Shown here: piece after piece, positions 32,795-43,069 of the stretch
How positions within the stretch are numbered: position 1 is the first letter of the stretch
Layout of the letters: each line of letters starts with the position of its first letter
NCBI GenBank assembly: GCA_035692005.1
Contig: DASSII010000102.1
Location: 135-64,134, forward strand
Direction: 5' to 3'
Source: Candidatus Limnocylindrales bacterium
GTDB lineage: Bacteria; Chloroflexota; Limnocylindria; Limnocylindrales; CSP1-4
DNA: 64,000 nt
The notes under the pieces: model-generated
Told to the model about the DNA's origin: nothing
The model's input: only the letters and a program-made list of their open reading frames with translations
The model's database searches: none
Position numbers and translations under genes: made by a program

Positions 32795-33053
32795 GCCCGA
32801 AGGAACTGGTGGGAGGACCGGCCGGTCGGTTCGCAACGGCTCTGAACAAGTCCAGAGTCCTTACGCTCCGCCCGAGACCCTCATCCGCTGGCCTTGCGGC
32901 CCTCGAACCCGGTTCCCGGGACCGTCCCGAGGATCACTCCCCGGTGCGGTCTGGCGGTTCGCACCTGCCCCTTCGGGCAAGACGAAATGTACTGTCGCGG
33001 GCGGTCCACGGGCAACGGCCTTATCCACGAACTTCGGTCGAACGATCGGTGCG
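32795..33053 (-). ncRNA. Candidate structured ncRNA in the 730-bp MFS/Rieske intergenic region (some 6S-like features)
   Basis: Complementary pairs 32795-32803/32970-32978 and 32868-32878/32994-33004 (10 of 11); GGCC-GCAA-GGCC tetraloop hairpin; GAACCGGGTTCGAGGG segment; TACATT -10-like box at 32991-32986. Confidence 0.35.
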
Positions 33054-33095
33054 TTATCCCCGGATTTCCCGCCGATGTGGACGGTCTGTGGAGAA
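33002..33095. promoter_or_regulatory. Cluster of DnaA-box-like 9-mers
   Basis: TTATCCACG 33021, TTATCCCCG 33054, TGTGGAGAA 33087, weaker TGTGGACGG 33076 and CGGTCCACG 33002; none is a perfect consensus. Confidence 0.4.
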
Positions 33096-33169
33096 CGTCG
33101 CGCATCCGCAGCTGGTCGCGAGGGCGTACGCTCCCACGAGAGCCCGACCCATGCCGAGGAGGTTCGACC

Positions 33170-34039
33170 GTGGCACGACTACTGGCTCGACTCGTCGCCA
33201 TCAACGACGGCTGGGCGAAACCGTTCGGCGAGTTCAACCGGCGCTGGCTGACGGCCGTGTTTCGGCCGATGCTCCCGATCCGCGACTTCCTCAACGGTCG
33301 ATGGCTCGGCCATCCGCTGCATGCCGCCATCACCGACATCCCGATCGGCCTGCTGCTCGGGGTCGTCCTTCTCGACGTAGTCGGCCAGTCGGCTGCCGCC
33401 GACATCACGCTCGTCGCGACGGTCCTGACGATGCTCGCCGCCGCCGTCAGCGGCATGGCCGACTACAGCGACACGAGCGGGACGGCCCTGACCAGGGCCA
33501 CGCTCCACGCGACGCTGATGGTCGTGGCGCTGGTGCTCCTCCTCGTGTCGATCGCGCTGCGAGCCGGCGCCCCGCTCGATCGCACCATGCCGATCGCGCT
33601 ATCCATCGCGGGACTGCTGATCGTGACCGCCGGCGCCTTCGTCGGTGGCGACGTCGTGTACGTGACGGGTAATGCGGTCGACCGGCACGCGTTTCGCGGT
33701 GCCGGCACGAAGTGGATCCACCTCGACACCCGGGAGATCGCCGACCTGGCGAACCTTCCGGAGGCGACGCCGACCAAGATGAAGGCCGGCAGCAACGATC
33801 TGGTCGTCGTTCGGACAGGGGCGACGATCCAGGCACTGCACAACGTCTGCGCCCACGCCGGCGGCCCGCTCGACCAGGGCGAGATCGTGGACGGCTGCAT
33901 CCAGTGTCCGTGGCACGGCTCGCGGTTCCGACTCGCGGACGGCTACGTCCAGCGCGGCCCGTCGGTCTACGACCAGCCGGCATACGAGTTGCGCGCTGCG
34001 GAGGGCGGTGGATACGAGGTCCGGCGCCTCCCGTCCTGA
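33170..34039 (+). CDS. DUF2231-like membrane domain fused to a Rieske 2Fe-2S domain
   Basis: GAGGAGG SD; GHPLHAAITDIPIG; C-x-H (CAHAGGPL) and CPWHGSRF Rieske ligands. Confidence 0.9.
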   Translation: MARLLARLVAINDGWAKPFGEFNRRWLTAVFRPMLPIRDFLNGRWLGHPLHAAITDIPIGLLLGVVLLDVVGQSAAADITLVATVLTMLAAAVSGMADYSDTSGTALTRATLHATLMVVALVLLLVSIALRAGAPLDRTMPIALSIAGLLIVTAGAFVGGDVVYVTGNAVDRHAFRGAGTKWIHLDTREIADLANLPEATPTKMKAGSNDLVVVRTGATIQALHNVCAHAGGPLDQGEIVDGCIQCPWHGSRFRLADGYVQRGPSVYDQPAYELRAAEGGGYEVRRLPS

Positions 34040-34979: not shown

Positions 34980-35843
34980 CTACGTGGCCGAGCCGGCGCC
35001 GATCAGCGCGACCGCCATGCCGGCCAGCACGATCCCGATCGTGTGCTCGCGGGTGACCCGCTCGCGCAGGAACGCGGCCGCGAGGATGACCGTCGCCACC
35101 GGGTACAGGGCGGACAGGACCGAGGCGACCGCCAGCAGTCCGGTCTGCACGGCCAGCAGGTAGCAGCTGTTGCCGATCATGTCGAGCACGCCGACGAGCG
35201 CGAGTGCCGGCAGGATCGGACGGCCCGGGCGCCACGCCTGGCGGGTCACCAGGATGGCCCCCACGACGAGCGCCGCCTGGACCGCGCGGATGACGGTCAG
35301 CGACGCGAACACGTTGCCGTTCGAGAGGCCGGCGATGACCACCCCGAACAGGCCGATGGCCACCCCCGAGATGAGCGCCTCTGACAGGCCGGCGCGACCG
35401 CCGCCTTCATCCGCCACCCGCGACACCAGGACGACTGCGACCACGGCGACGACGATGCCGAGCTGGACGAGCGGCGCCGGGATCCCCTCCAGGACGACCC
35501 CGGCCACGACCGGGATCACCGCCGCCAGCACACCGGTGACCGGAGCGACGATGCCCATCCGCCCGACGGCAAGTCCCCGATATAGCGCGGTGATCCCGAC
35601 ACCCCCGAACACGCCCGCCAGGAGGCAGAGCAGGAGGTCCCGACCGGCCGGGAAGCGCTCCCCACCAAGCAGCGCGAGCGCCAGCGCGAGGGCCATCCCG
35701 ACGACCTGGGACACGAGCACCACCCCGAATACCGGGGAGCGACGGCTCGCCAGCCCGCCGCCGAAGTCGCCGGCACCCCACGCCGCGGCCGCCGCGAGGC
35801 CGAGGATCACCGTGAGCGTGCCCGCCGGCAGGTCGAGGATCAG
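34980..35843 (-). CDS. DMT/EamA family transporter (start approximate)
   Basis: WGAGDFGGG, LYRGLA-x-G-x-M-x-x-VAP, LYPVATV, LRER motifs. Confidence 0.85.
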   Translation of the reverse strand: MILDLPAGTLTVILGLAAAAAWGAGDFGGGLASRRSPVFGVVLVSQVVGMALALALALLGGERFPAGRDLLLCLLAGVFGGVGITALYRGLAVGRMGIVAPVTGVLAAVIPVVAGVVLEGIPAPLVQLGIVVAVVAVVLVSRVADEGGGRAGLSEALISGVAIGLFGVVIAGLSNGNVFASLTVIRAVQAALVVGAILVTRQAWRPGRPILPALALVGVLDMIGNSCYLLAVQTGLLAVASVLSALYPVATVILAAAFLRERVTREHTIGIVLAGMAVALIGAGSAT

Positions 35844-38053
35844 GCGCTCGCCTCGCCTGACGTCGGCCGGGCCGGCGCCAGGGACGGATCGTCGACGGCG
35901 TCGTCGACGGCGGTCGGCCCGGGCAACTCGACGACCGCGTCGGCAGCGGCGTCGTAGCGGTCGGACGTGGTCAGGTAGATGATCTGGAAATCGGCCGCGA
36001 CCCGCTTGAGGAGCGCAAGGGCCCGGGTCGCCCGCACGTCGTCGAGCGTGACGAACGGATCGTCGAACACGAGCGGGGGCCGCCGGTCGCCGGTCACCAG
36101 CCGGACCAGGCCCAGACGCGCCGCCAGGTACACGAGATCGAGGGTGCCCTGGCTGAGCGATCCGACCGGGACCCAATCGCCGCGTTCGGGTGCGTGGACG
36201 TCGATGTCCAGCGTCTTGTCGTCGACGCGCACCCGCCGATAGCGGCCACCGGTCACGGTCGACACGTCACGGACCATGTGGCCTTCGAGGTAGCGCGTCG
36301 CGGTCTTCATCGTGGCGACCTCGGCGCGCTCGATGGCGCGGAGCGTCGTCTCCAGCACGCGGTGGCGTCGCTGCAGCGCGCCCAACTGCTCACGCCAGAC
36401 CGCCAGACGCTCGCTCTCGGCCGCCACCTGCTCAGCGTCGACCGCGTTGTTCTCCACCCGGGCGCGGGCGTTGGCCTCGTCGTCGCGAGCCCGCTCGAGG
36501 GCAGCCTCCTGGTCGCGGACCTCGACCTCGAGGCGTTCCCGTGCGCGTGGCTCCTTGGCGATCGGGCCGAGGCCCTCGAGGGCGCTCGTCTTCTGCTCGA
36601 TCTCGAGCGCGGCGGCATCGCGTTGCGCGCCGAGGGTCTCGCGCGGGGCAGTGCCGACGAGGCCGGCGAGCTGCGCCTGCAGCTGGTCCATCCGCGCGAC
36701 ATGCGCCTCCTCGCGTGCCAGGAGGTCCTCGGCCGCGGGCAGGCCGTCGAGCCCGAGTGCGCCCAGCTGCTGCTCGGTGTCGGCCTCCGCCTGCTTGAGC
36801 TCGGCCTCCATCTCGGATCGTCCGCGCAGGCGGCGATCGATCTCGACATCGCGCAGCTGCTCCTGCATCGCCGAGCCCCGCCGCAACCAGAACGCGACGA
36901 GGGTCAGGATCAGGCCGATCCCGACGACCGCGGCGGCAAGGTACAGCGGTGCGGGGCCAAGCCTGGCGACGCCGAGGAGATCGAGTCCGAGCGTCACGGC
37001 CGCGACGACGATGCCGAGGACGACCAGGAGCATGCCCCAGCGCGAGAGCGGCCGCCAGGTCGGCTCAGGTGCGACATCGAAGCGCACCTCGACCTCGCCC
37101 GCCAGCGCGGCGCGCAGTTCGCGCATCCGGGTGTCGAGGCCGCGCAGCCGCTCGACCGACTGGCGCACGACCGGGAGGGGGTTCGGCGACGGGTGCGTCT
37201 GGGCCAGGCCATCCAGCTCCGCCGACACCTCGACCGCATCGCGGAAGCGGTCGAAGCGCTCCTTGGCCGCGGCTCGCTCGGCCTGCAACCGTTCGGCCTG
37301 GCGCGCCTTCTCGAGCAGGCTGCGACGCTCCGCCAAGGTCGCCTCGGACTCGGCTCGGCGCTCACGGGCGCCGGACAGGCTGTCGCGGTCCCGCTCGAGC
37401 TGGCCCAGGGCGAGCTCACCGGCCTCGACCGAGCCAGCGGTTGACGCGACCGCAGCCTCCGCCACCTTGAGTCGACCGGGATTCTTGTCTCCCTTGGTCG
37501 TCAGCTCGTGGAGGGCGCGCTCGAGCTTCTTCTTCGCGCGGCCCGTGCCCCGATCGGCGCCGCTGATGCTCGCCTGGAGTCGGTCGCGAAGCGCGCTCTC
37601 GTCGCGCGCGACATCGCTCAGCTCGTGGTGACGGACGGACGCGGTCGAGCGGAAGAAGGCCTCCGTCGGGATGCCGGACAGCTCGGCGAGGACCTGGTCG
37701 GCGAGCGCGGGATCGGACACCGTCTGGCCGTCGTAGCGGAGTTCGACGGTGCCCTTCTGGCCACCGAATGTCTTCTCCAGCGTGCCGCTCGCCCGCCGGC
37801 CGTCCTCCTCGTCCTGCTCGAACTCGAGCCCGATCCACGTCCGGGCGTCCGCTCCAGCGTCCCACGGGCGGAGCGATTCGAGGTCGGCGGCGCTGCTCGT
37901 GACCCGGCGGGTGAGGGCCAGCTCGATGGCACGCTGGATCGTCGTCTTGCCGGCCTCGTTGGGGCCGCGAACCACCGTGACGCCCGGGGCCAGGTCGATG
38001 TCCAGTTCCCGATAGCGACGCAGGTCGCGGACCTGCAGCCGGCGGATCCTCAC
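35840..38053 (-). CDS. SMC/Rad50-like ATPase (YhaN-like) with central transmembrane hairpin
   Basis: Walker A GPNEAGKTT, signature LSQGT, Walker B/D-loop LVFDDPF, long coiled coils, no Cys, two TM helices near the midpoint. Confidence 0.88.
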   Translation of the reverse strand: MRIRRLQVRDLRRYRELDIDLAPGVTVVRGPNEAGKTTIQRAIELALTRRVTSSAADLESLRPWDAGADARTWIGLEFEQDEEDGRRASGTLEKTFGGQKGTVELRYDGQTVSDPALADQVLAELSGIPTEAFFRSTASVRHHELSDVARDESALRDRLQASISGADRGTGRAKKKLERALHELTTKGDKNPGRLKVAEAAVASTAGSVEAGELALGQLERDRDSLSGARERRAESEATLAERRSLLEKARQAERLQAERAAAKERFDRFRDAVEVSAELDGLAQTHPSPNPLPVVRQSVERLRGLDTRMRELRAALAGEVEVRFDVAPEPTWRPLSRWGMLLVVLGIVVAAVTLGLDLLGVARLGPAPLYLAAAVVGIGLILTLVAFWLRRGSAMQEQLRDVEIDRRLRGRSEMEAELKQAEADTEQQLGALGLDGLPAAEDLLAREEAHVARMDQLQAQLAGLVGTAPRETLGAQRDAAALEIEQKTSALEGLGPIAKEPRARERLEVEVRDQEAALERARDDEANARARVENNAVDAEQVAAESERLAVWREQLGALQRRHRVLETTLRAIERAEVATMKTATRYLEGHMVRDVSTVTGGRYRRVRVDDKTLDIDVHAPERGDWVPVGSLSQGTLDLVYLAARLGLVRLVTGDRRPPLVFDDPFVTLDDVRATRALALLKRVAADFQIIYLTTSDRYDAAADAVVELPGPTAVDDAVDDPSLAPARPTSGEASA

Positions 38054-39237
38054 AGGGCGACCTCGTGCCCAGCCAGCAACAGCCGTCCCAGGCGCAAGGC
38101 GTCCCGCAGCTCGGCCGCCTCGTCGGAGCGGTCCGGGGTGCCGTCCGCCGGACCGGCCTCGAGCTCGGCGATGCGCGCCTCGAGGTCCCGGATGAACGCT
38201 CCGGCGACCGTGTCGGCCGAGGGCAGGAGGCCCTCGGTCAGGGCGGGCGTACTCACGTCACGGACGCGCACCTTGAGGAACGACGACGCGAGCGCGGTCT
38301 CGATCTCGTCGAGATGGAGGTCGAGCTCGTCCGGTCGGACGCCGACGATCCGGGCGTCGAGCACGAGGTCCGGGTCGGCCTGGCGGACCAGCCGGTCGAT
38401 GAGGTCGGGCTGCGAGGCGATCGACGCCGCATCGACGTCGAGCTTCGTGAAGCGGGTCCGGCCGACCTGATGCTCGGTGATGGTCACCAGGGGACCAGCG
38501 GCCGTCGACTCGAGGTCGACGAGCAGGACCTTGCCCGCCCGATCCTGGTCGAGCGCGACCGCCTCCGGGGCTCCGGCATAGGCGTAGGTGACGCCGCCCG
38601 TCTTCGAGTGCTGGGCCGAATGCCAGTGCCCGAGCGCGAGGTAATCGAGGCCGCTGGCCGCGATCTCGTCGGTGGTGATGACGACGTCGTCCCGTTCGGT
38701 CTTGCCGGGGATGGCGACCGAGCCGTGGATCATCCCGATCTTCCAGGTCGCCGCTGTCCGATCGGCCGCGACGTCGAGGTCGCGCAACGGGCTGTGCGGT
38801 GCACGCTTCATCCCGAACACGGGTCCGTACACGACGGCGTCGCAGGCGGCCAGATGGACCGACGGGTTGCCTGGCGTCAGGATCGACACCCAGTCGTCGT
38901 CGTGGGTGCTGCCGGCGAGCGTCTTGAGGTCGTAGGCCCGGTAGATCGACGCGCGGTCGTAGCAGTCGTGGGTGCCCGGGATGATGACCGTCCGGATCTT
39001 CGCAGCGGCCAGGCGCTTGAGCTGGGCGGCCACCCGCTCGACCGATCGACGCGGCTGGACGTTGCTGTCGAACAGGTCGCCGGCGACCAGGAACAGGTCC
39101 ACCTTCTCGGCCAGCGCCAGATCGATGGCGGCCGCGAACGCAGCGAACTGCCGTTCGCGCTGGGCGCTGGCCTGCTCGCCGAGGTCATCGTGGCGAGCGC
39201 CGAGATGGACATCCGCGGTGTGGACGATGCGGAGCAT
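38050..39237 (-). CDS. Mre11/SbcD-like DNA repair exonuclease (metallophosphoesterase)
   Basis: HTADVHLG, VAGDLFD, IPGTHD, MIHGS, YLALGHWH, YAGAPE. Confidence 0.9.
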   Translation of the reverse strand: MLRIVHTADVHLGARHDDLGEQASAQRERQFAAFAAAIDLALAEKVDLFLVAGDLFDSNVQPRRSVERVAAQLKRLAAAKIRTVIIPGTHDCYDRASIYRAYDLKTLAGSTHDDDWVSILTPGNPSVHLAACDAVVYGPVFGMKRAPHSPLRDLDVAADRTAATWKIGMIHGSVAIPGKTERDDVVITTDEIAASGLDYLALGHWHSAQHSKTGGVTYAYAGAPEAVALDQDRAGKVLLVDLESTAAGPLVTITEHQVGRTRFTKLDVDAASIASQPDLIDRLVRQADPDLVLDARIVGVRPDELDLHLDEIETALASSFLKVRVRDVSTPALTEGLLPSADTVAGAFIRDLEARIAELEAGPADGTPDRSDEAAELRDALRLGRLLLAGHEVAL

Positions 39238-39385: not shown

Positions 39386-39593
39386 CTCGCCAGCGCCATG
39401 GCCTGCCTGATTCAGGAGCCCGTTGTATCCTGCGCCGCACGAAGAACCGGTGCGCCCCGCAGACAGGGACTCCACATCGGCACCTGGGTCAAGCGGGCCC
39501 GGCTCCCATCCGCCAGCCTCGCATTCCCGACTGCCGACACGGTCGCCCTCCGCGGGCCGCACCTCGCCGACCAACGCGCCCCGGAGGAGCATC

Positions 39594-39932
39594 GTGACCT
39601 ACGTCGATCGGACCCTCAACTGCGTCGATTGCGGTGTGGAGTTCATCCATTCCGCCGCGGATCAGGAGTACTACGCGCAGAAGGGGTTCTCGAGCGAACC
39701 CAAGCGCTGCACGAGCTGCCGGGCCAGCCGGCGCGCCGCCCGGGACGGCGGCTATGACGTCCGCGACATCGGGGGCCCACGCGGGTACGAGCGCGGTGAC
39801 GACCGACCCGAGCGTGAGTACTTCGCGGTCGTCTGCTCGTCGTGCGGCAATCAGGCCCAGGTCCCGTTCCGTCCGCGCATGGATCGGCCGGTCTACTGCT
39901 CGGACTGCTTCCGGACTGTCCGCCCCGACTGA
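39594..39932 (+). CDS. Zinc-ribbon protein with CxxC-x17-CxxC domain
   Basis: GGAGG SD; CVDC...CTSC and CSSC...PFRP...PVYCSDC. Confidence 0.9.
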   Translation: MTYVDRTLNCVDCGVEFIHSAADQEYYAQKGFSSEPKRCTSCRASRRAARDGGYDVRDIGGPRGYERGDDRPEREYFAVVCSSCGNQAQVPFRPRMDRPVYCSDCFRTVRPD

Positions 39933-40689: not shown

Positions 40690-42279
40690 ATGACGTCCCG
40701 GCAGCGCTGGACCCTCCTGGCCACGATCATCGGCTCGGGGGCGGTCTTCCTCGACGGGACCATCGTCAACGTCGCCCTGCCCCGTATCGGACGCGAACTG
40801 CCGGCCACGTTCGTGGGCGTGCTCGAGGGGCAGACCTACATCGTCAGCGGCTATCTCGCCGTGCTCGCGGCATTGCTCATCCTCGCCGGGGCGCTGTCCG
40901 ACCGATTCGGCCGACGGCGAACGTACGTCATCGGTATCGCCGGCTTCGCGATCACGTCCGCGCTGTGCGGGCTCGCCCCCACCTTCGAGTGGCTGATCGT
41001 CTTCCGGCTGCTGCAGGGGGCCGCCGGCGCGCTGATGATCCCGGGCGCGCTGTCGATCATCACCCAGACCTTCGCGGCCGAGGAACGCGGCCGGGCGTTC
41101 GGGATCTGGACATCGGCCACGTCGGGGCTCGTGCTGCTCGGCCCGCTCCTCGGCGGGCTGGTCGTCGACACCATCGGTTGGCGCTTCGCCTTCCTCGTGA
41201 ACGTGCCGTTCCTGGCCGTCGCCCTGTGGATCGCGTTGCGGCACGTCGAGGAGTCGCGCGACCTTGGTCGCCCGGGACGATTCGACTGGCTGGGCTCGAT
41301 CGTGGCGGCGATCGCGGTCGGCGGGCTGTCGTTCGGCATCATCCGGGGCGGAGAGCAGGAATGGGCGGACCCGCTGGCGTGGGCGTCGATCGTCGCTGGT
41401 GGCATCGCGCTGGTCATGTTCCCGGTGCTGATGGCGACCCGCCCCGATCCGCTCGTGCCGCTGGCCCTGTTCCGGTCACGGACGTTCAGCTCGATCAACG
41501 TCGCGACCTTCTTCATCTACGGCGCGCTGTACGTCGCCCTCAGCTACCAGGGCCTGGTGCTGCAGGGCGTCTTGCACTACTCGGCGCTGGCGGCCGGCGC
41601 GGCGGGCCTGCCGATGGGCCTGTGCCTGGCGTTCTTCTCGACCCGCATCGGCGCGGTGGCCGGCCGGATCGGGGCTCGCCCGTTCATGACCGCCGGGCCG
41701 CTGATCATGACCGTCGGCCTGCTGTGGTTCACCCGGCTGCCGGTCGATTCCGATCCGTGGCTGGCGGCAGTCCAGGCTCCCGCGAGCCTGGTGCCGCCGC
41801 TCGACTTCGTCGTCGACATCCTGCCCGCCGTGCTGCTGTTCGGCATCGGGATGTCGCTCATCGTCGCCCCGCTGACGAACACGCTGATGGGGTCCATCCC
41901 GGTGCGATTCTCGGGCCTCGGCTCGGCGATCAACAACGCCATCTCGCGCGTCGGCCAGCCGCTGCTGGGGGCGCTCATCTTCGTTGCCATCAGCGCCACG
42001 TTCTATGCCAACCTGGGCACGCTCGTGCCCGGCCTGGATCCCGCCGATCCGGCGGTCCGCACCACATTCGCGCCGCTCAATCCGCCGCGATCGGGCGCCT
42101 CGCCGGCGGACGTCGCGGCGGCCGCCCAGGCATCCGTGCTGGCGTTCCACGACGCCATGCGGGTCGCGGTCGTCCTCCTGCTCATCGCCAGCGCGGTGTC
42201 GTGGTTCGGGCTGCGCGACACCGACCGGGCCGGCGCCCGCGTCGCGGCCCGCAGCGAGCGACCTCGTGCCGACGCCTGA
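40690..42279 (+). CDS. MFS transporter, DHA2 (14-TM) family
   Basis: LDGTIVNVALP, GALSDRFGRR, RLLQGAAGAL, GGLVVD-x-x-GWR. Confidence 0.92.
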   Translation: MTSRQRWTLLATIIGSGAVFLDGTIVNVALPRIGRELPATFVGVLEGQTYIVSGYLAVLAALLILAGALSDRFGRRRTYVIGIAGFAITSALCGLAPTFEWLIVFRLLQGAAGALMIPGALSIITQTFAAEERGRAFGIWTSATSGLVLLGPLLGGLVVDTIGWRFAFLVNVPFLAVALWIALRHVEESRDLGRPGRFDWLGSIVAAIAVGGLSFGIIRGGEQEWADPLAWASIVAGGIALVMFPVLMATRPDPLVPLALFRSRTFSSINVATFFIYGALYVALSYQGLVLQGVLHYSALAAGAAGLPMGLCLAFFSTRIGAVAGRIGARPFMTAGPLIMTVGLLWFTRLPVDSDPWLAAVQAPASLVPPLDFVVDILPAVLLFGIGMSLIVAPLTNTLMGSIPVRFSGLGSAINNAISRVGQPLLGALIFVAISATFYANLGTLVPGLDPADPAVRTTFAPLNPPRSGASPADVAAAAQASVLAFHDAMRVAVVLLLIASAVSWFGLRDTDRAGARVAARSERPRADA

Positions 42280-43069
42280 TCCGCCACATCGGCCCGGCGA
42301 CGACGGCGGCACGCCGCCGGGCGCCCCGCGCGACTGGGATGGACGGACCTATGACCGGATCGCCGACCCCATGACCCGCTGGGGCGTCGGCGTGCTCGAG
42401 CGGTTGCCGCTGCGCGGCGACGAACGGGTCCTCGACGCGGGTTGCGGGTCGGGTCGGGTGACCGAGCGCCTGGCCGAGCGACTGCCCGCTGGCCGGGTCG
42501 TCGCGCTCGACGGTTCGCCCTCGATGATCGACGCTGCTCGCGACCGCCTGGCGCGCTTCGGCGATCGGATCGACTTCGTCGTTGCCGACCTCGGCCGCCC
42601 GCTCCCCGTCGAGGGCGGGCTGGACGCGGTCTTCTCGACCGCCACGTTCCACTGGGTCGCGGACCACGATGCCCTGTTCGCCAACCTCGCCGCCGTGACC
42701 CGGCCGGGCGGCTGGCTCGTGGCGCAGTGCGGCGGCGCGGGCAACGTGGCGCGGATCATGCGGGCGCTCGCCACGGTCGGCGACGGCTGGCTGGGGCCGG
42801 CCCACTTCGAGACCGTCCTGGCGACGACGACCCGACTCGATGCCGCCGGCTATGTCGATATCGAGTGCTGGCTGACCGACGAACCGACGCGCTTCGAGCC
42901 TGGTGCGCCGTTCGAGACCTACCTGCGCACGGTCGCTCTCGGTCCGCAGCTGGAGCGGCTGCCCGAGGGCGAGCGCGATGGGTTCGTCCACGCGGTCGCC
43001 GAGCAGATCGGCGAACCGCTCATCGATTACGTCCGGCTCAACATCGTCGCCCGGCGGGGCGATCGCTGA
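42266..43069 (+). CDS. Class I SAM-dependent methyltransferase (Tam-like)
   Basis: VLDAGCGSG, DAVFSTATFHWV, PGGWL, DYVRLN. Confidence 0.88.
   Translation: MPTPDPPHRPGDDGGTPPGAPRDWDGRTYDRIADPMTRWGVGVLERLPLRGDERVLDAGCGSGRVTERLAERLPAGRVVALDGSPSMIDAARDRLARFGDRIDFVVADLGRPLPVEGGLDAVFSTATFHWVADHDALFANLAAVTRPGGWLVAQCGGAGNVARIMRALATVGDGWLGPAHFETVLATTTRLDAAGYVDIECWLTDEPTRFEPGAPFETYLRTVALGPQLERLPEGERDGFVHAVAEQIGEPLIDYVRLNIVARRGDR

Follow-up and report, generated by a model that had tools for sequence, protein, structure and literature searches.

A short-armed SbcF/SbcE (YhaO/YhaN) pair from Limnocylindria with a predicted transmembrane hairpin at the zinc-hook position

Among the bacterial relatives of the Mre11-Rad50 (MR) complex is the pair SbcE and SbcF (YhaN and YhaO; COG4717), which a later survey still describes as poorly characterised (PMC6452273). 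In Bacillus subtilis, SbcE is without the CxxC motif and carries a 'unique central domain', the first half of which is hydrophobic and which was completely insoluble when expressed; the protein forms polar foci in competent cells and, together with SbcF, contributes to double-strand-break repair and transformation (PMC2811018). That work does not term the central domain transmembrane, and in the open literature that we searched SbcE/SbcF figures only as a repair factor that is poorly characterised and has a 'unique hydrophobic central domain' (PMC2811018; PMC6452273). Our search of the open literature found no membrane-anchored Mre11-Rad50 complex, nor membrane-anchored Rad50-like or SMC-like proteins. 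Here we describe two adjacent genes, one for an Mre11-type nuclease and one for a Rad50-like ATPase, in a 64,000-nt stretch (the window) of contig DASSII010000102.1 from a metagenome-assembled genome (MAG) of an uncultured soil Chloroflexota bacterium of the class Limnocylindria (GCA_035692005.1). We consider it probable, at roughly 0.65, that they encode the Limnocylindria SbcF/SbcE complex, a relative of Mre11-Rad50 and SbcCD whose coiled-coil arm ends in a two-helix membrane hairpin and whose task is housekeeping DNA-end processing.

The ATPase gene lies at positions 35840..38053 of the window, on the minus strand like every other feature of the pair, and its product of 737 amino acids (aa) contains no cysteine. 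In its AlphaFold2 model, which was built on 28 relatives and has a mean predicted local distance difference test score (pLDDT) of 78.4, an antiparallel coiled coil of long helices, with ~140-190 residues per strand, interrupts an ATP-binding cassette (ABC) head, and at the apex of this coiled coil, at the exact mid-length of the protein, there are two adjacent hydrophobic helices. The model has a disordered stretch at residues 320-330, a helix at 334-359 and another at 368-433, and in the latter the second hydrophobic segment passes directly into the returning strand of the coiled coil. From hydropathy, Hessa-scale sums and the model, the two predicted transmembrane helices are placed at aa 340-360 (36974..37036) and aa 370-390 (36884..36946). 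Kyte-Doolittle 19-mer values peak at up to 2.67 in helix 1 and at 2.54 in helix 2, and simple Hessa-scale sums come to -1.7 and -2.5 kcal/mol, with +7.8 for the next-best segment of the ATPase. The apex as a whole amounts to ~50 very hydrophobic residues, arranged as two helices of 21-25 residues with a loop of ~9 residues between them (aa 361-369). Arginine and tryptophan flank the hairpin on both sides, with W333 and R391 invariant in the 28-sequence alignment, and helix 2 is followed by a conserved basic WLRR/RRQR stretch.

The hairpin is the least conserved part of the ATPase, with a mean pairwise identity of 37% among the 28 relatives vs 63-78% elsewhere in the protein, and its hydropathy is nevertheless strictly kept: in all 28 relatives the hairpin is hydrophobic (mean +1.93, minimum +1.48, vs -0.54 for the rest of the ATPase), with only 0-3 charged residues in its 47-63 positions. 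Low identity combined with strictly kept hydrophobicity is a pattern characteristic of helices that face lipid, rather than of a specific protein core, and the alignment indicates that the hydrophobicity is not a matter of chance. The same feature is found well beyond the close relatives. We examined 37 full-length representatives of ~700 aa with 24-54% identity, which come from Actinomycetota, Zixibacteria and other MAGs and range from high-GC to Lys-rich organisms. In 36 of them a hydrophobic block of 45-55 residues lies at 0.41-0.54 of the protein length, and a CxxC motif is present in none of the 37. On these sequence properties we predict that the hairpin inserts into the membrane, and membrane anchoring of the ATPase is well supported in silico. 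A Pfam match to DUF2231 over aa 329-401 of the ATPase falls below the cut-off, and we set it aside as a product of mere transmembrane-like composition.

The ends of the ATPase chain are those of a Rad50-like protein with several departures from the catalytic consensus. It scores above the Pfam cut-offs for AAA_23, SMC_N and AAA_27, the last of which (PF13514; 31.6 bits vs a cut-off of 22) is the YhaN-type N-terminal domain and is above cut-off in the whole-genome scan as well. No curated NCBIfam equivalog is reached (TIGR00618 gives 22 bits vs a cut-off of 478.5), and Rad50 models give at most 34 bits vs cut-offs of 700-1087. The closest solved structure by sequence is the Rad50 head 3aux (1.6e-12), and when the model is searched with Foldseek the first match is Rad50 of the Chaetomium Mre11-Rad50-Nbs1 (MRN) complex (7zr1_D, 3.3e-16), followed by Smc5/6, MukB and SbcC. 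By motif and alignment we place the Walker A motif GPNEAGKT at aa 30-37 (37943..37966), the ABC signature LSQGT at aa 633-637 (36143..36157) and the Walker B motif with the D-loop, LVFDDPF(VTLD), at aa 661-667 (36053..36073), the longer form LVFDDPFVTLD extending to aa 671. Within DDPF (aa 664-667), an Asp stands at the position of the catalytic Glu of ABC ATPases (DD, not DE); D664 is invariant both among the 28 relatives and in the alignment of the short, ~700-aa family, and D665, P666 and F667 are invariant among the relatives and at least 90% conserved in the short family. The H-loop His is absent (LTTSD). Two segments of the arm, GPIAKEPRARERLEVEV (aa 496-512) and RDDEANARARVE-N-VDAE (aa 523-541), together at 36425-36565 of the window, are more conserved than the heads themselves, and the stretch DxEIDRRLRGRS (aa 402-413), right after the hairpin, is conserved to a similar degree. 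These stretches could form a partner-binding or DNA-binding surface.

The partner gene (38050..39237) encodes a nuclease of 395 aa with a phosphoesterase domain, a capping domain and a C-terminal helix pair, as seen by Pfam, AlphaFold2 and Foldseek. It matches the calcineurin-like phosphoesterase family Metallophos (Pfam, 1.7e-14), and its best curated model is TIGR00619 (sbcd), at 66.2 bits, under the cut-off of 77.65. The phosphoesterase motifs read DVH, GDLFD, GTHD, IHG and GHWH; motifs I, II, IV and V are canonical, and in motif III, aligned at aa 88-91 (38965..38976), Thr replaces the Asn of GNHD. This change extends across phyla: an alignment of 27 sequences, the partner nucleases from Actinomycetota and Zixibacteria among them, has G88 and D91 without exception and shows at least 90% conservation of T89 and H90. 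GNHD is what the reference YhaO and SbcD proteins have. The remaining metal ligands of the Mre11 site are all invariant in the nuclease alignment, and the capping domain and helix pair are intact in the model. That model is confident (pLDDT 89.4, predicted template modelling score 0.82), and all of its top 50 Foldseek matches in the PDB are Mre11 or SbcD, the best being 3av0_A (1.1e-15), the full-length Mre11 of M. jannaschii in an Mre11-Rad50 complex. It ends in helices at 344-360 and 371-388, a helix-loop-helix (aa 344-388; 38074..38208) that is the predicted counterpart of the Mre11 Rad50-binding domain, and the tail is conserved (...ELRDALRLGRLLLAGHEV.L). By analogy with that domain, the helix pair would bind the ATPase. 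The two genes overlap by four nucleotides, GTGA at 38050..38053, in which the TGA stop of the nuclease and the GTG start of the ATPase are interleaved. Of 65 related loci, 64 have this overlap as well, which would fit translational coupling of the two genes.

A profile search of 1.84 billion representatives returned 18,489 clusters at E <= 1e-3, of which 5,916 remain at E <= 1e-10; the distant members that carry a name come from Actinomycetota and Zixibacteria MAGs and are annotated merely 'AAA family ATPase'. The short-family profile gives 147 bits to YhaN of S. aureus and 129.5 to that of Listeria, and 19.4 to E. coli SbcC. In hhalign comparisons Listeria YhaN reaches 99.6% probability (E 2.9e-24) and SbcC 96.7% (3.8e-10), and the nuclease profile gives YhaO proteins 52-68 bits (68 for Listeria YhaO) vs 40 for E. 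coli SbcD. The derived head motifs point the same way: NEAGK[ST]T, LS[QR][GA]T (LSQAT in Listeria) and the DD Walker B, the last of which recurs in the Listeria, S. aureus and Sphingomonas YhaN proteins, are shared with YhaN, and E. coli SbcC has TGAGKT, LSGGE and DE in their place. The central hydrophobic block is shared too. It occupies aa 426-471 in Listeria YhaN (907 aa) and aa 465-513 in S. aureus YhaN (978 aa), so that a block of ~46-50 residues sits at mid-length in both, and neither has a CxxC motif. Because the hairpin occurs in YhaN too and the profile scores favour YhaN over SbcC, we conclude from the sequences that the pair is a short-armed member of the SbcE/SbcF (YhaN/YhaO) family, its Limnocylindria version, and that the apical hairpin is a property of the whole YhaN/SbcE family and not peculiar to the Limnocylindria gene.

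The family features that we find are the AAA_27 domain, greater closeness to YhaN than to SbcC or Rad50, Rad50-like heads, an SbcD-like gene upstream in the nuclease-then-ATPase order, and a central hydrophobic domain without CxxC. What we do not find at this locus is the Bacillota size of ~900-980 aa, the heptad region of ~300 aa or the yhaO-yhaN-yhaM operon: the ATPase has 737 aa with arms of ~140-190 residues, vs 907-978 aa and arms of ~300 in YhaN, and downstream of it lies an EamA transporter gene and not the yhaM exoribonuclease. The ~900-980-aa size and the yhaM operon are probably features of the Bacillota subfamily and do not define the family. Other differences are the GTHD of the nuclease, the missing H-loop His of the ATPase and the genomic setting, in that Bacillus also has SbcCD and the Limnocylindria pair is the sole Mre11-type nuclease found in its lineage. 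Two observations on the reference sequences belong here. The Listeria and S. aureus YhaN sequences were taken from yhaO-yhaN-yhaM loci in two 'UNVERIFIED' phage records, OR846761.1 ('UNVERIFIED_ORG: Listeria phage') and OR845005.1 ('Staphylococcus phage'); both carry the host-type operon and look like host chromosomal contigs (transduced or contaminating DNA) and not phage genes. On a mobilisable Sphingomonas plasmid (NZ_CP043640.1, 614-5339), a 'DNA repair exonuclease' and a 1161-aa 'YhaN family protein' follow right after an AbiEii/AbiGii toxin gene; the latter scores 86.6 bits with the short-family profile, has neither a hydrophobic hairpin nor CxxC, and with its partner represents a soluble, possibly defence-linked branch of the YhaN superfamily.

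With the better known SbcCD and Mre11-Rad50 complexes the pair shares adjacent, coupled genes, an ABC head split by an antiparallel coiled coil, and the Mre11 fold with its capping domain and C-terminal Rad50-binding helix pair, and its best fold matches are Rad50 (7zr1) and Mre11 (3av0). It differs from them in having a hydrophobic hairpin and not a single Cys where E. coli SbcC has the CPLC of its zinc hook at residue 506, in its LSQGT, DD and GTHD motifs where LSGGE/Q, DE and GNHD are expected, and in reaching none of the curated SbcC, SbcD and Rad50 models. Much of this had been anticipated by an earlier reading of the window made from the letters alone, without database searches (the sequence-only reading). 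Its description of the ATPase (737 aa, no Cys, Walker A, LSQGT and DDPF) is borne out by the open reading frame (ORF) 35840-38053, as are the two adjacent apical helices and their coordinates by Kyte-Doolittle and Hessa values, and the nuclease start at 39237, on which the relatives agree, with its GTHD; the 4-nt overlap fits the coupling that it described. The Mre11/Rad50-like identity that it proposed now has the best PDB matches of both AlphaFold models behind it, the YhaN/YhaO-type placement has AAA_27, the profile scores and the shared head motifs, and the hydrophobic hairpin in place of the CxxC hook holds in 28/28 relatives and 36/37 distant representatives.

We compared 80 loci from species-representative genomes, all Chloroflexota and most labelled Candidatus Limnocylindrales, with 59-95% identity. 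Essentially all of these loci share a single gene order (MFS, Rieske/DUF2231, AAA_33 kinase, in some cases YCII, EamA, ATPase, nuclease, a divergent double zinc-finger gene, peptidase S51, MFS, methyltransferase, amidohydrolase); 78 of the 80 include the nuclease and 79 include EamA. The neighbours are transporter and metabolic genes, and ATPase identity between loci rises and falls with theirs. Across 301 genomes sampled from the phylum, all 17 genomes of the window's family have the full-length gene pair, a streamlined sister family (~1.1 Mb) is without the full-length gene, ~30 genomes of other families have the same short form, and 102 of the 301 have some YhaN-type gene. The sequences thus indicate a fixed, vertically inherited core locus. 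The G+C content is ~72% across the window with no compositional break around the pair, and a tblastn search of 72,556 plasmid and 50,697 phage records found short head-domain matches only and no full-length homologue, so that we reject a mobile-element or plasmid origin. The SbcD model TIGR00619 has one match per genome in 10 of 13 genomes of the genus, with a second, weaker one in an eleventh, and in none of the 13 does a match reach the canonical SbcD cut-off; in the window's own genome (87% complete), tblastn finds no paralogue and no second SbcCD or MR complex. The genome also contains ComEC and Ku. In the contigs of three distant members, a ~375-aa phosphoesterase gene lies immediately upstream every time. 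One of the three is surrounded by RNase J, FtsK, Lon and CarD, and another by RtcB and archease, with an EcoRV-type restriction-modification pair at a distance of two genes; the third has a tRNA methyltransferase nearby.

In our best reading, the pair is a membrane-tethered DNA-end machine. The hairpin would insert with both ends cytoplasmic and its ~9-residue loop outside, and an arm of ~140 residues would then keep the heads, and with them the nuclease, roughly 20 nm from the membrane on its cytoplasmic side. Upon ATP binding, two ATPase subunits would engage their heads and clamp a DNA end, which the Mre11-type nuclease dimer, held by its C-terminal helices at the base of the coiled coil, would cut or trim. 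Within the bilayer, hairpins would associate side by side and so join the apices, as the zinc hook otherwise does. The pair would in this way do the job of SbcCD or MR at the membrane, acting on DNA ends that are blocked, broken or folded into hairpins before RecA or Ku comes into play, and this job is the most likely one because the pair is the sole Mre11-type nuclease found in the lineage. A role on incoming transforming DNA, via ComEC, is possible but secondary, by analogy with B. subtilis; we keep it because ComEC is present and because SbcE affects transformation in that species (PMC2811018).

Several points weigh against this reading. Insertion of the hairpin is a prediction, and the confidence of AlphaFold2 in this part of the model is modest (pLDDT 61-72). 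The B. subtilis SbcE-YFP (yellow fluorescent protein) fusion forms discrete, sometimes moving foci, and the protein was neither described as a membrane protein nor reported to stain the membrane (PMC2811018). An assembly that is 87% complete leaves some room for a second MR or SbcCD complex, though the relatives agree with the absence of one. To judge from their sequences, the Asp in Walker B, the missing H-loop His and the GTHD motif could also mean that enzymatic rates, kinetics or substrates differ from those of Mre11-Rad50. The foci and the low pLDDT would suit a hairpin that is not in the membrane at all and forms instead a buried four-helix bundle joining two arms, a soluble substitute for the zinc hook in a cytoplasmic complex, and it is true that the apex of Rad50, SMC and MukB proteins is always a dimerisation element. 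We nevertheless regard such a bundle as unlikely: the two segments of 21-25 residues have negative Hessa sums, the 47-63 hairpin residues include almost no charges, Arg/Trp belts lie on both flanks, and specific protein-protein cores are usually conserved in sequence, which this hairpin (37% identity, hydrophobicity strictly kept) is not; the complete insolubility of the central domain of B. subtilis SbcE (PMC2811018) speaks for the membrane as well. The departures from the catalytic consensus, namely DD in Walker B, no H-loop His in the Limnocylindria clade and GTHD across phyla, together with the very highly conserved non-catalytic arm motifs, might alternatively indicate a membrane-bound SMC-like scaffold whose main job is not end cutting, with the chemistry slowed or repurposed, such as a chromosome or nucleoid tether or an enzyme acting on a non-DNA phosphoesterase substrate. 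This seems to us improbable, slightly more so than the bundle, because Mre11-type metal binding is otherwise preserved in full, with every remaining ligand invariant, the nuclease model has an intact capping domain and helix pair, the B. subtilis orthologues have DNA-repair phenotypes (PMC2811018), and the DD Walker B is common to functional YhaN orthologues.

The sequence-only reading had gone further than a membrane-tethered DNA-end machine and had it possibly act on incoming phage, plasmid or transforming DNA; the tethered machine stands as the best reading, and the part that concerns phage and plasmid defence is unsupported. An anti-phage or anti-plasmid module, a membrane-stationed, ATP-gated nuclease that destroys entering foreign DNA, has in its favour that pairs of an SMC/Rad50-like ATPase and a nuclease are common defence effectors. 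Lamassu LmuB, Gabija GajA, Septu PtuA, MADS MAD3-MAD4 and Wadjet JetC all resemble our pair in the generic ABC head, for which PADLOC and PDB matches are weak, and in the pairing with a nuclease; those nucleases are however of the Toprim/OLD, Cap4, HNH or JetD types and none is Mre11-type, their partner genes are absent at the Limnocylindria locus, and the locus is core and syntenic and not part of an island. In the PADLOC check that had been proposed, the ATPase gives weak generic matches to mad3 (70 bits) and LmuB (56 bits) that cover the ABC heads only, 9 of 10 neighbours have no match, and no specific full-length match accompanied by system partner genes (MADS, Lamassu, Gabija, Septu and others) occurs in the neighbourhood. 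The tenth neighbour is the methyltransferase gene at 41984-43069 (plus strand), a class I S-adenosylmethionine (SAM) methyltransferase (Methyltransf_25/11, UbiE-like) that matches mad2 with 87 bits at profile positions 284-416 of 492, which is the SAM-binding domain only; it is of the small-molecule type and lies three genes off on the opposite strand. The MADS operon has eight genes (mad1-mad8), and in it the MAD3 ATPase pairs with the Toprim nuclease MAD4 (PMC13662399). This nuclease and the other MADS genes are absent nearby, and we reject MADS here, the mad3 and mad2 matches being to generic ABC heads and a SAM-binding domain. The EcoRV-type pair near one distant member and the protein without transmembrane segment beside the AbiEii toxin on the Sphingomonas plasmid lend the defence idea some colour, and against them stand the housekeeping genes around the three distant members, the lack of a full-length homologue on plasmid and phage records, the presence of the pair in the whole of its family, a neighbourhood free of defence genes, and a gene order fixed amid transporter and metabolic genes. 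Near-universal vertical inheritance belonged to the outcome that the sequence-only reading itself had named beforehand as refuting, and it is what we see (80 syntenic genomes, 17/17 in the family); for this reason the defence-island reading fails for the locus. Defence is not supported here, and we consider it about as improbable as the scaffold.

Taken alone, the locus changes little: the family already has a name, this is an ordinary member of it in a core genome, and the interest sits at the family level. A transmembrane-type hairpin at the hook position spans Bacillota, Chloroflexota, Actinomycetota and Zixibacteria MAGs. We would give not quite even odds to the wider proposition that the sole Mre11-Rad50-type machine of Limnocylindria, and of many uncultured lineages with the short form (~700-aa ATPase, ~375-aa nuclease), is membrane-embedded, with the transmembrane hairpin as both joint and localiser, that end recognition and resection take place at the inner face of the membrane, and that GTHD and DD mark a mechanistically distinct branch of MR complexes. 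If this is true, the zinc hook is no universal requirement of Rad50-type complexes; should insertion be confirmed, the hook would be replaceable and DNA-end processing would be tied to the membrane in many bacteria. B. subtilis offers itself as a direct test host, as genes and phenotypes already exist there.

A few details of the locus deserve mention. The nuclease ORF is open back to 39399, and we reject the longer form, because the relatives all start with MLRI/L-HTAD and their start Met corresponds to 39237 (MLRIVHTADVHLG), which gives the 395 aa; the gene call in one relative has 396 aa. On this comparison the start at 39237 is the most likely one. Inside the coding sequence, at 39145-39156, there is a perfect GAAC-N4-GTTC site (a Gram-positive-type LexA box), the sole one in the window, where ~0.4 would be expected by chance. 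Its codons read E-R-Q-F, and only 15 of 56 relatives have the palindrome in perfect form; it probably reflects chance, and we reject SOS regulation on this basis. In a set of MAGs labelled MFD... (L026, L037, L052, L065, L068-L071, L075, L080) the ATPase frame is broken or fused, with ORFs of 68-1043 aa, which looks like assembly frameshift errors rather than pseudogenes. Divergent from the nuclease, at 39423-39932 (plus strand), lies a gene for a 169-aa protein with two treble-clef zinc-finger domains (zf_Tbcl, zf_Tbcl_2). Its position is kept in 71 of the 80 Limnocylindria loci, with up to 95% identity; it is absent beside the three distant members, and the gene is recorded here as an observation and not as a functional partner of the pair. 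On the other side of the pair, at 32894-34039 (plus strand), is a gene for a membrane protein in which DUF2231 is fused to a C-terminal Rieske [2Fe-2S] domain, likewise syntenic in 71 of the 80 relatives.

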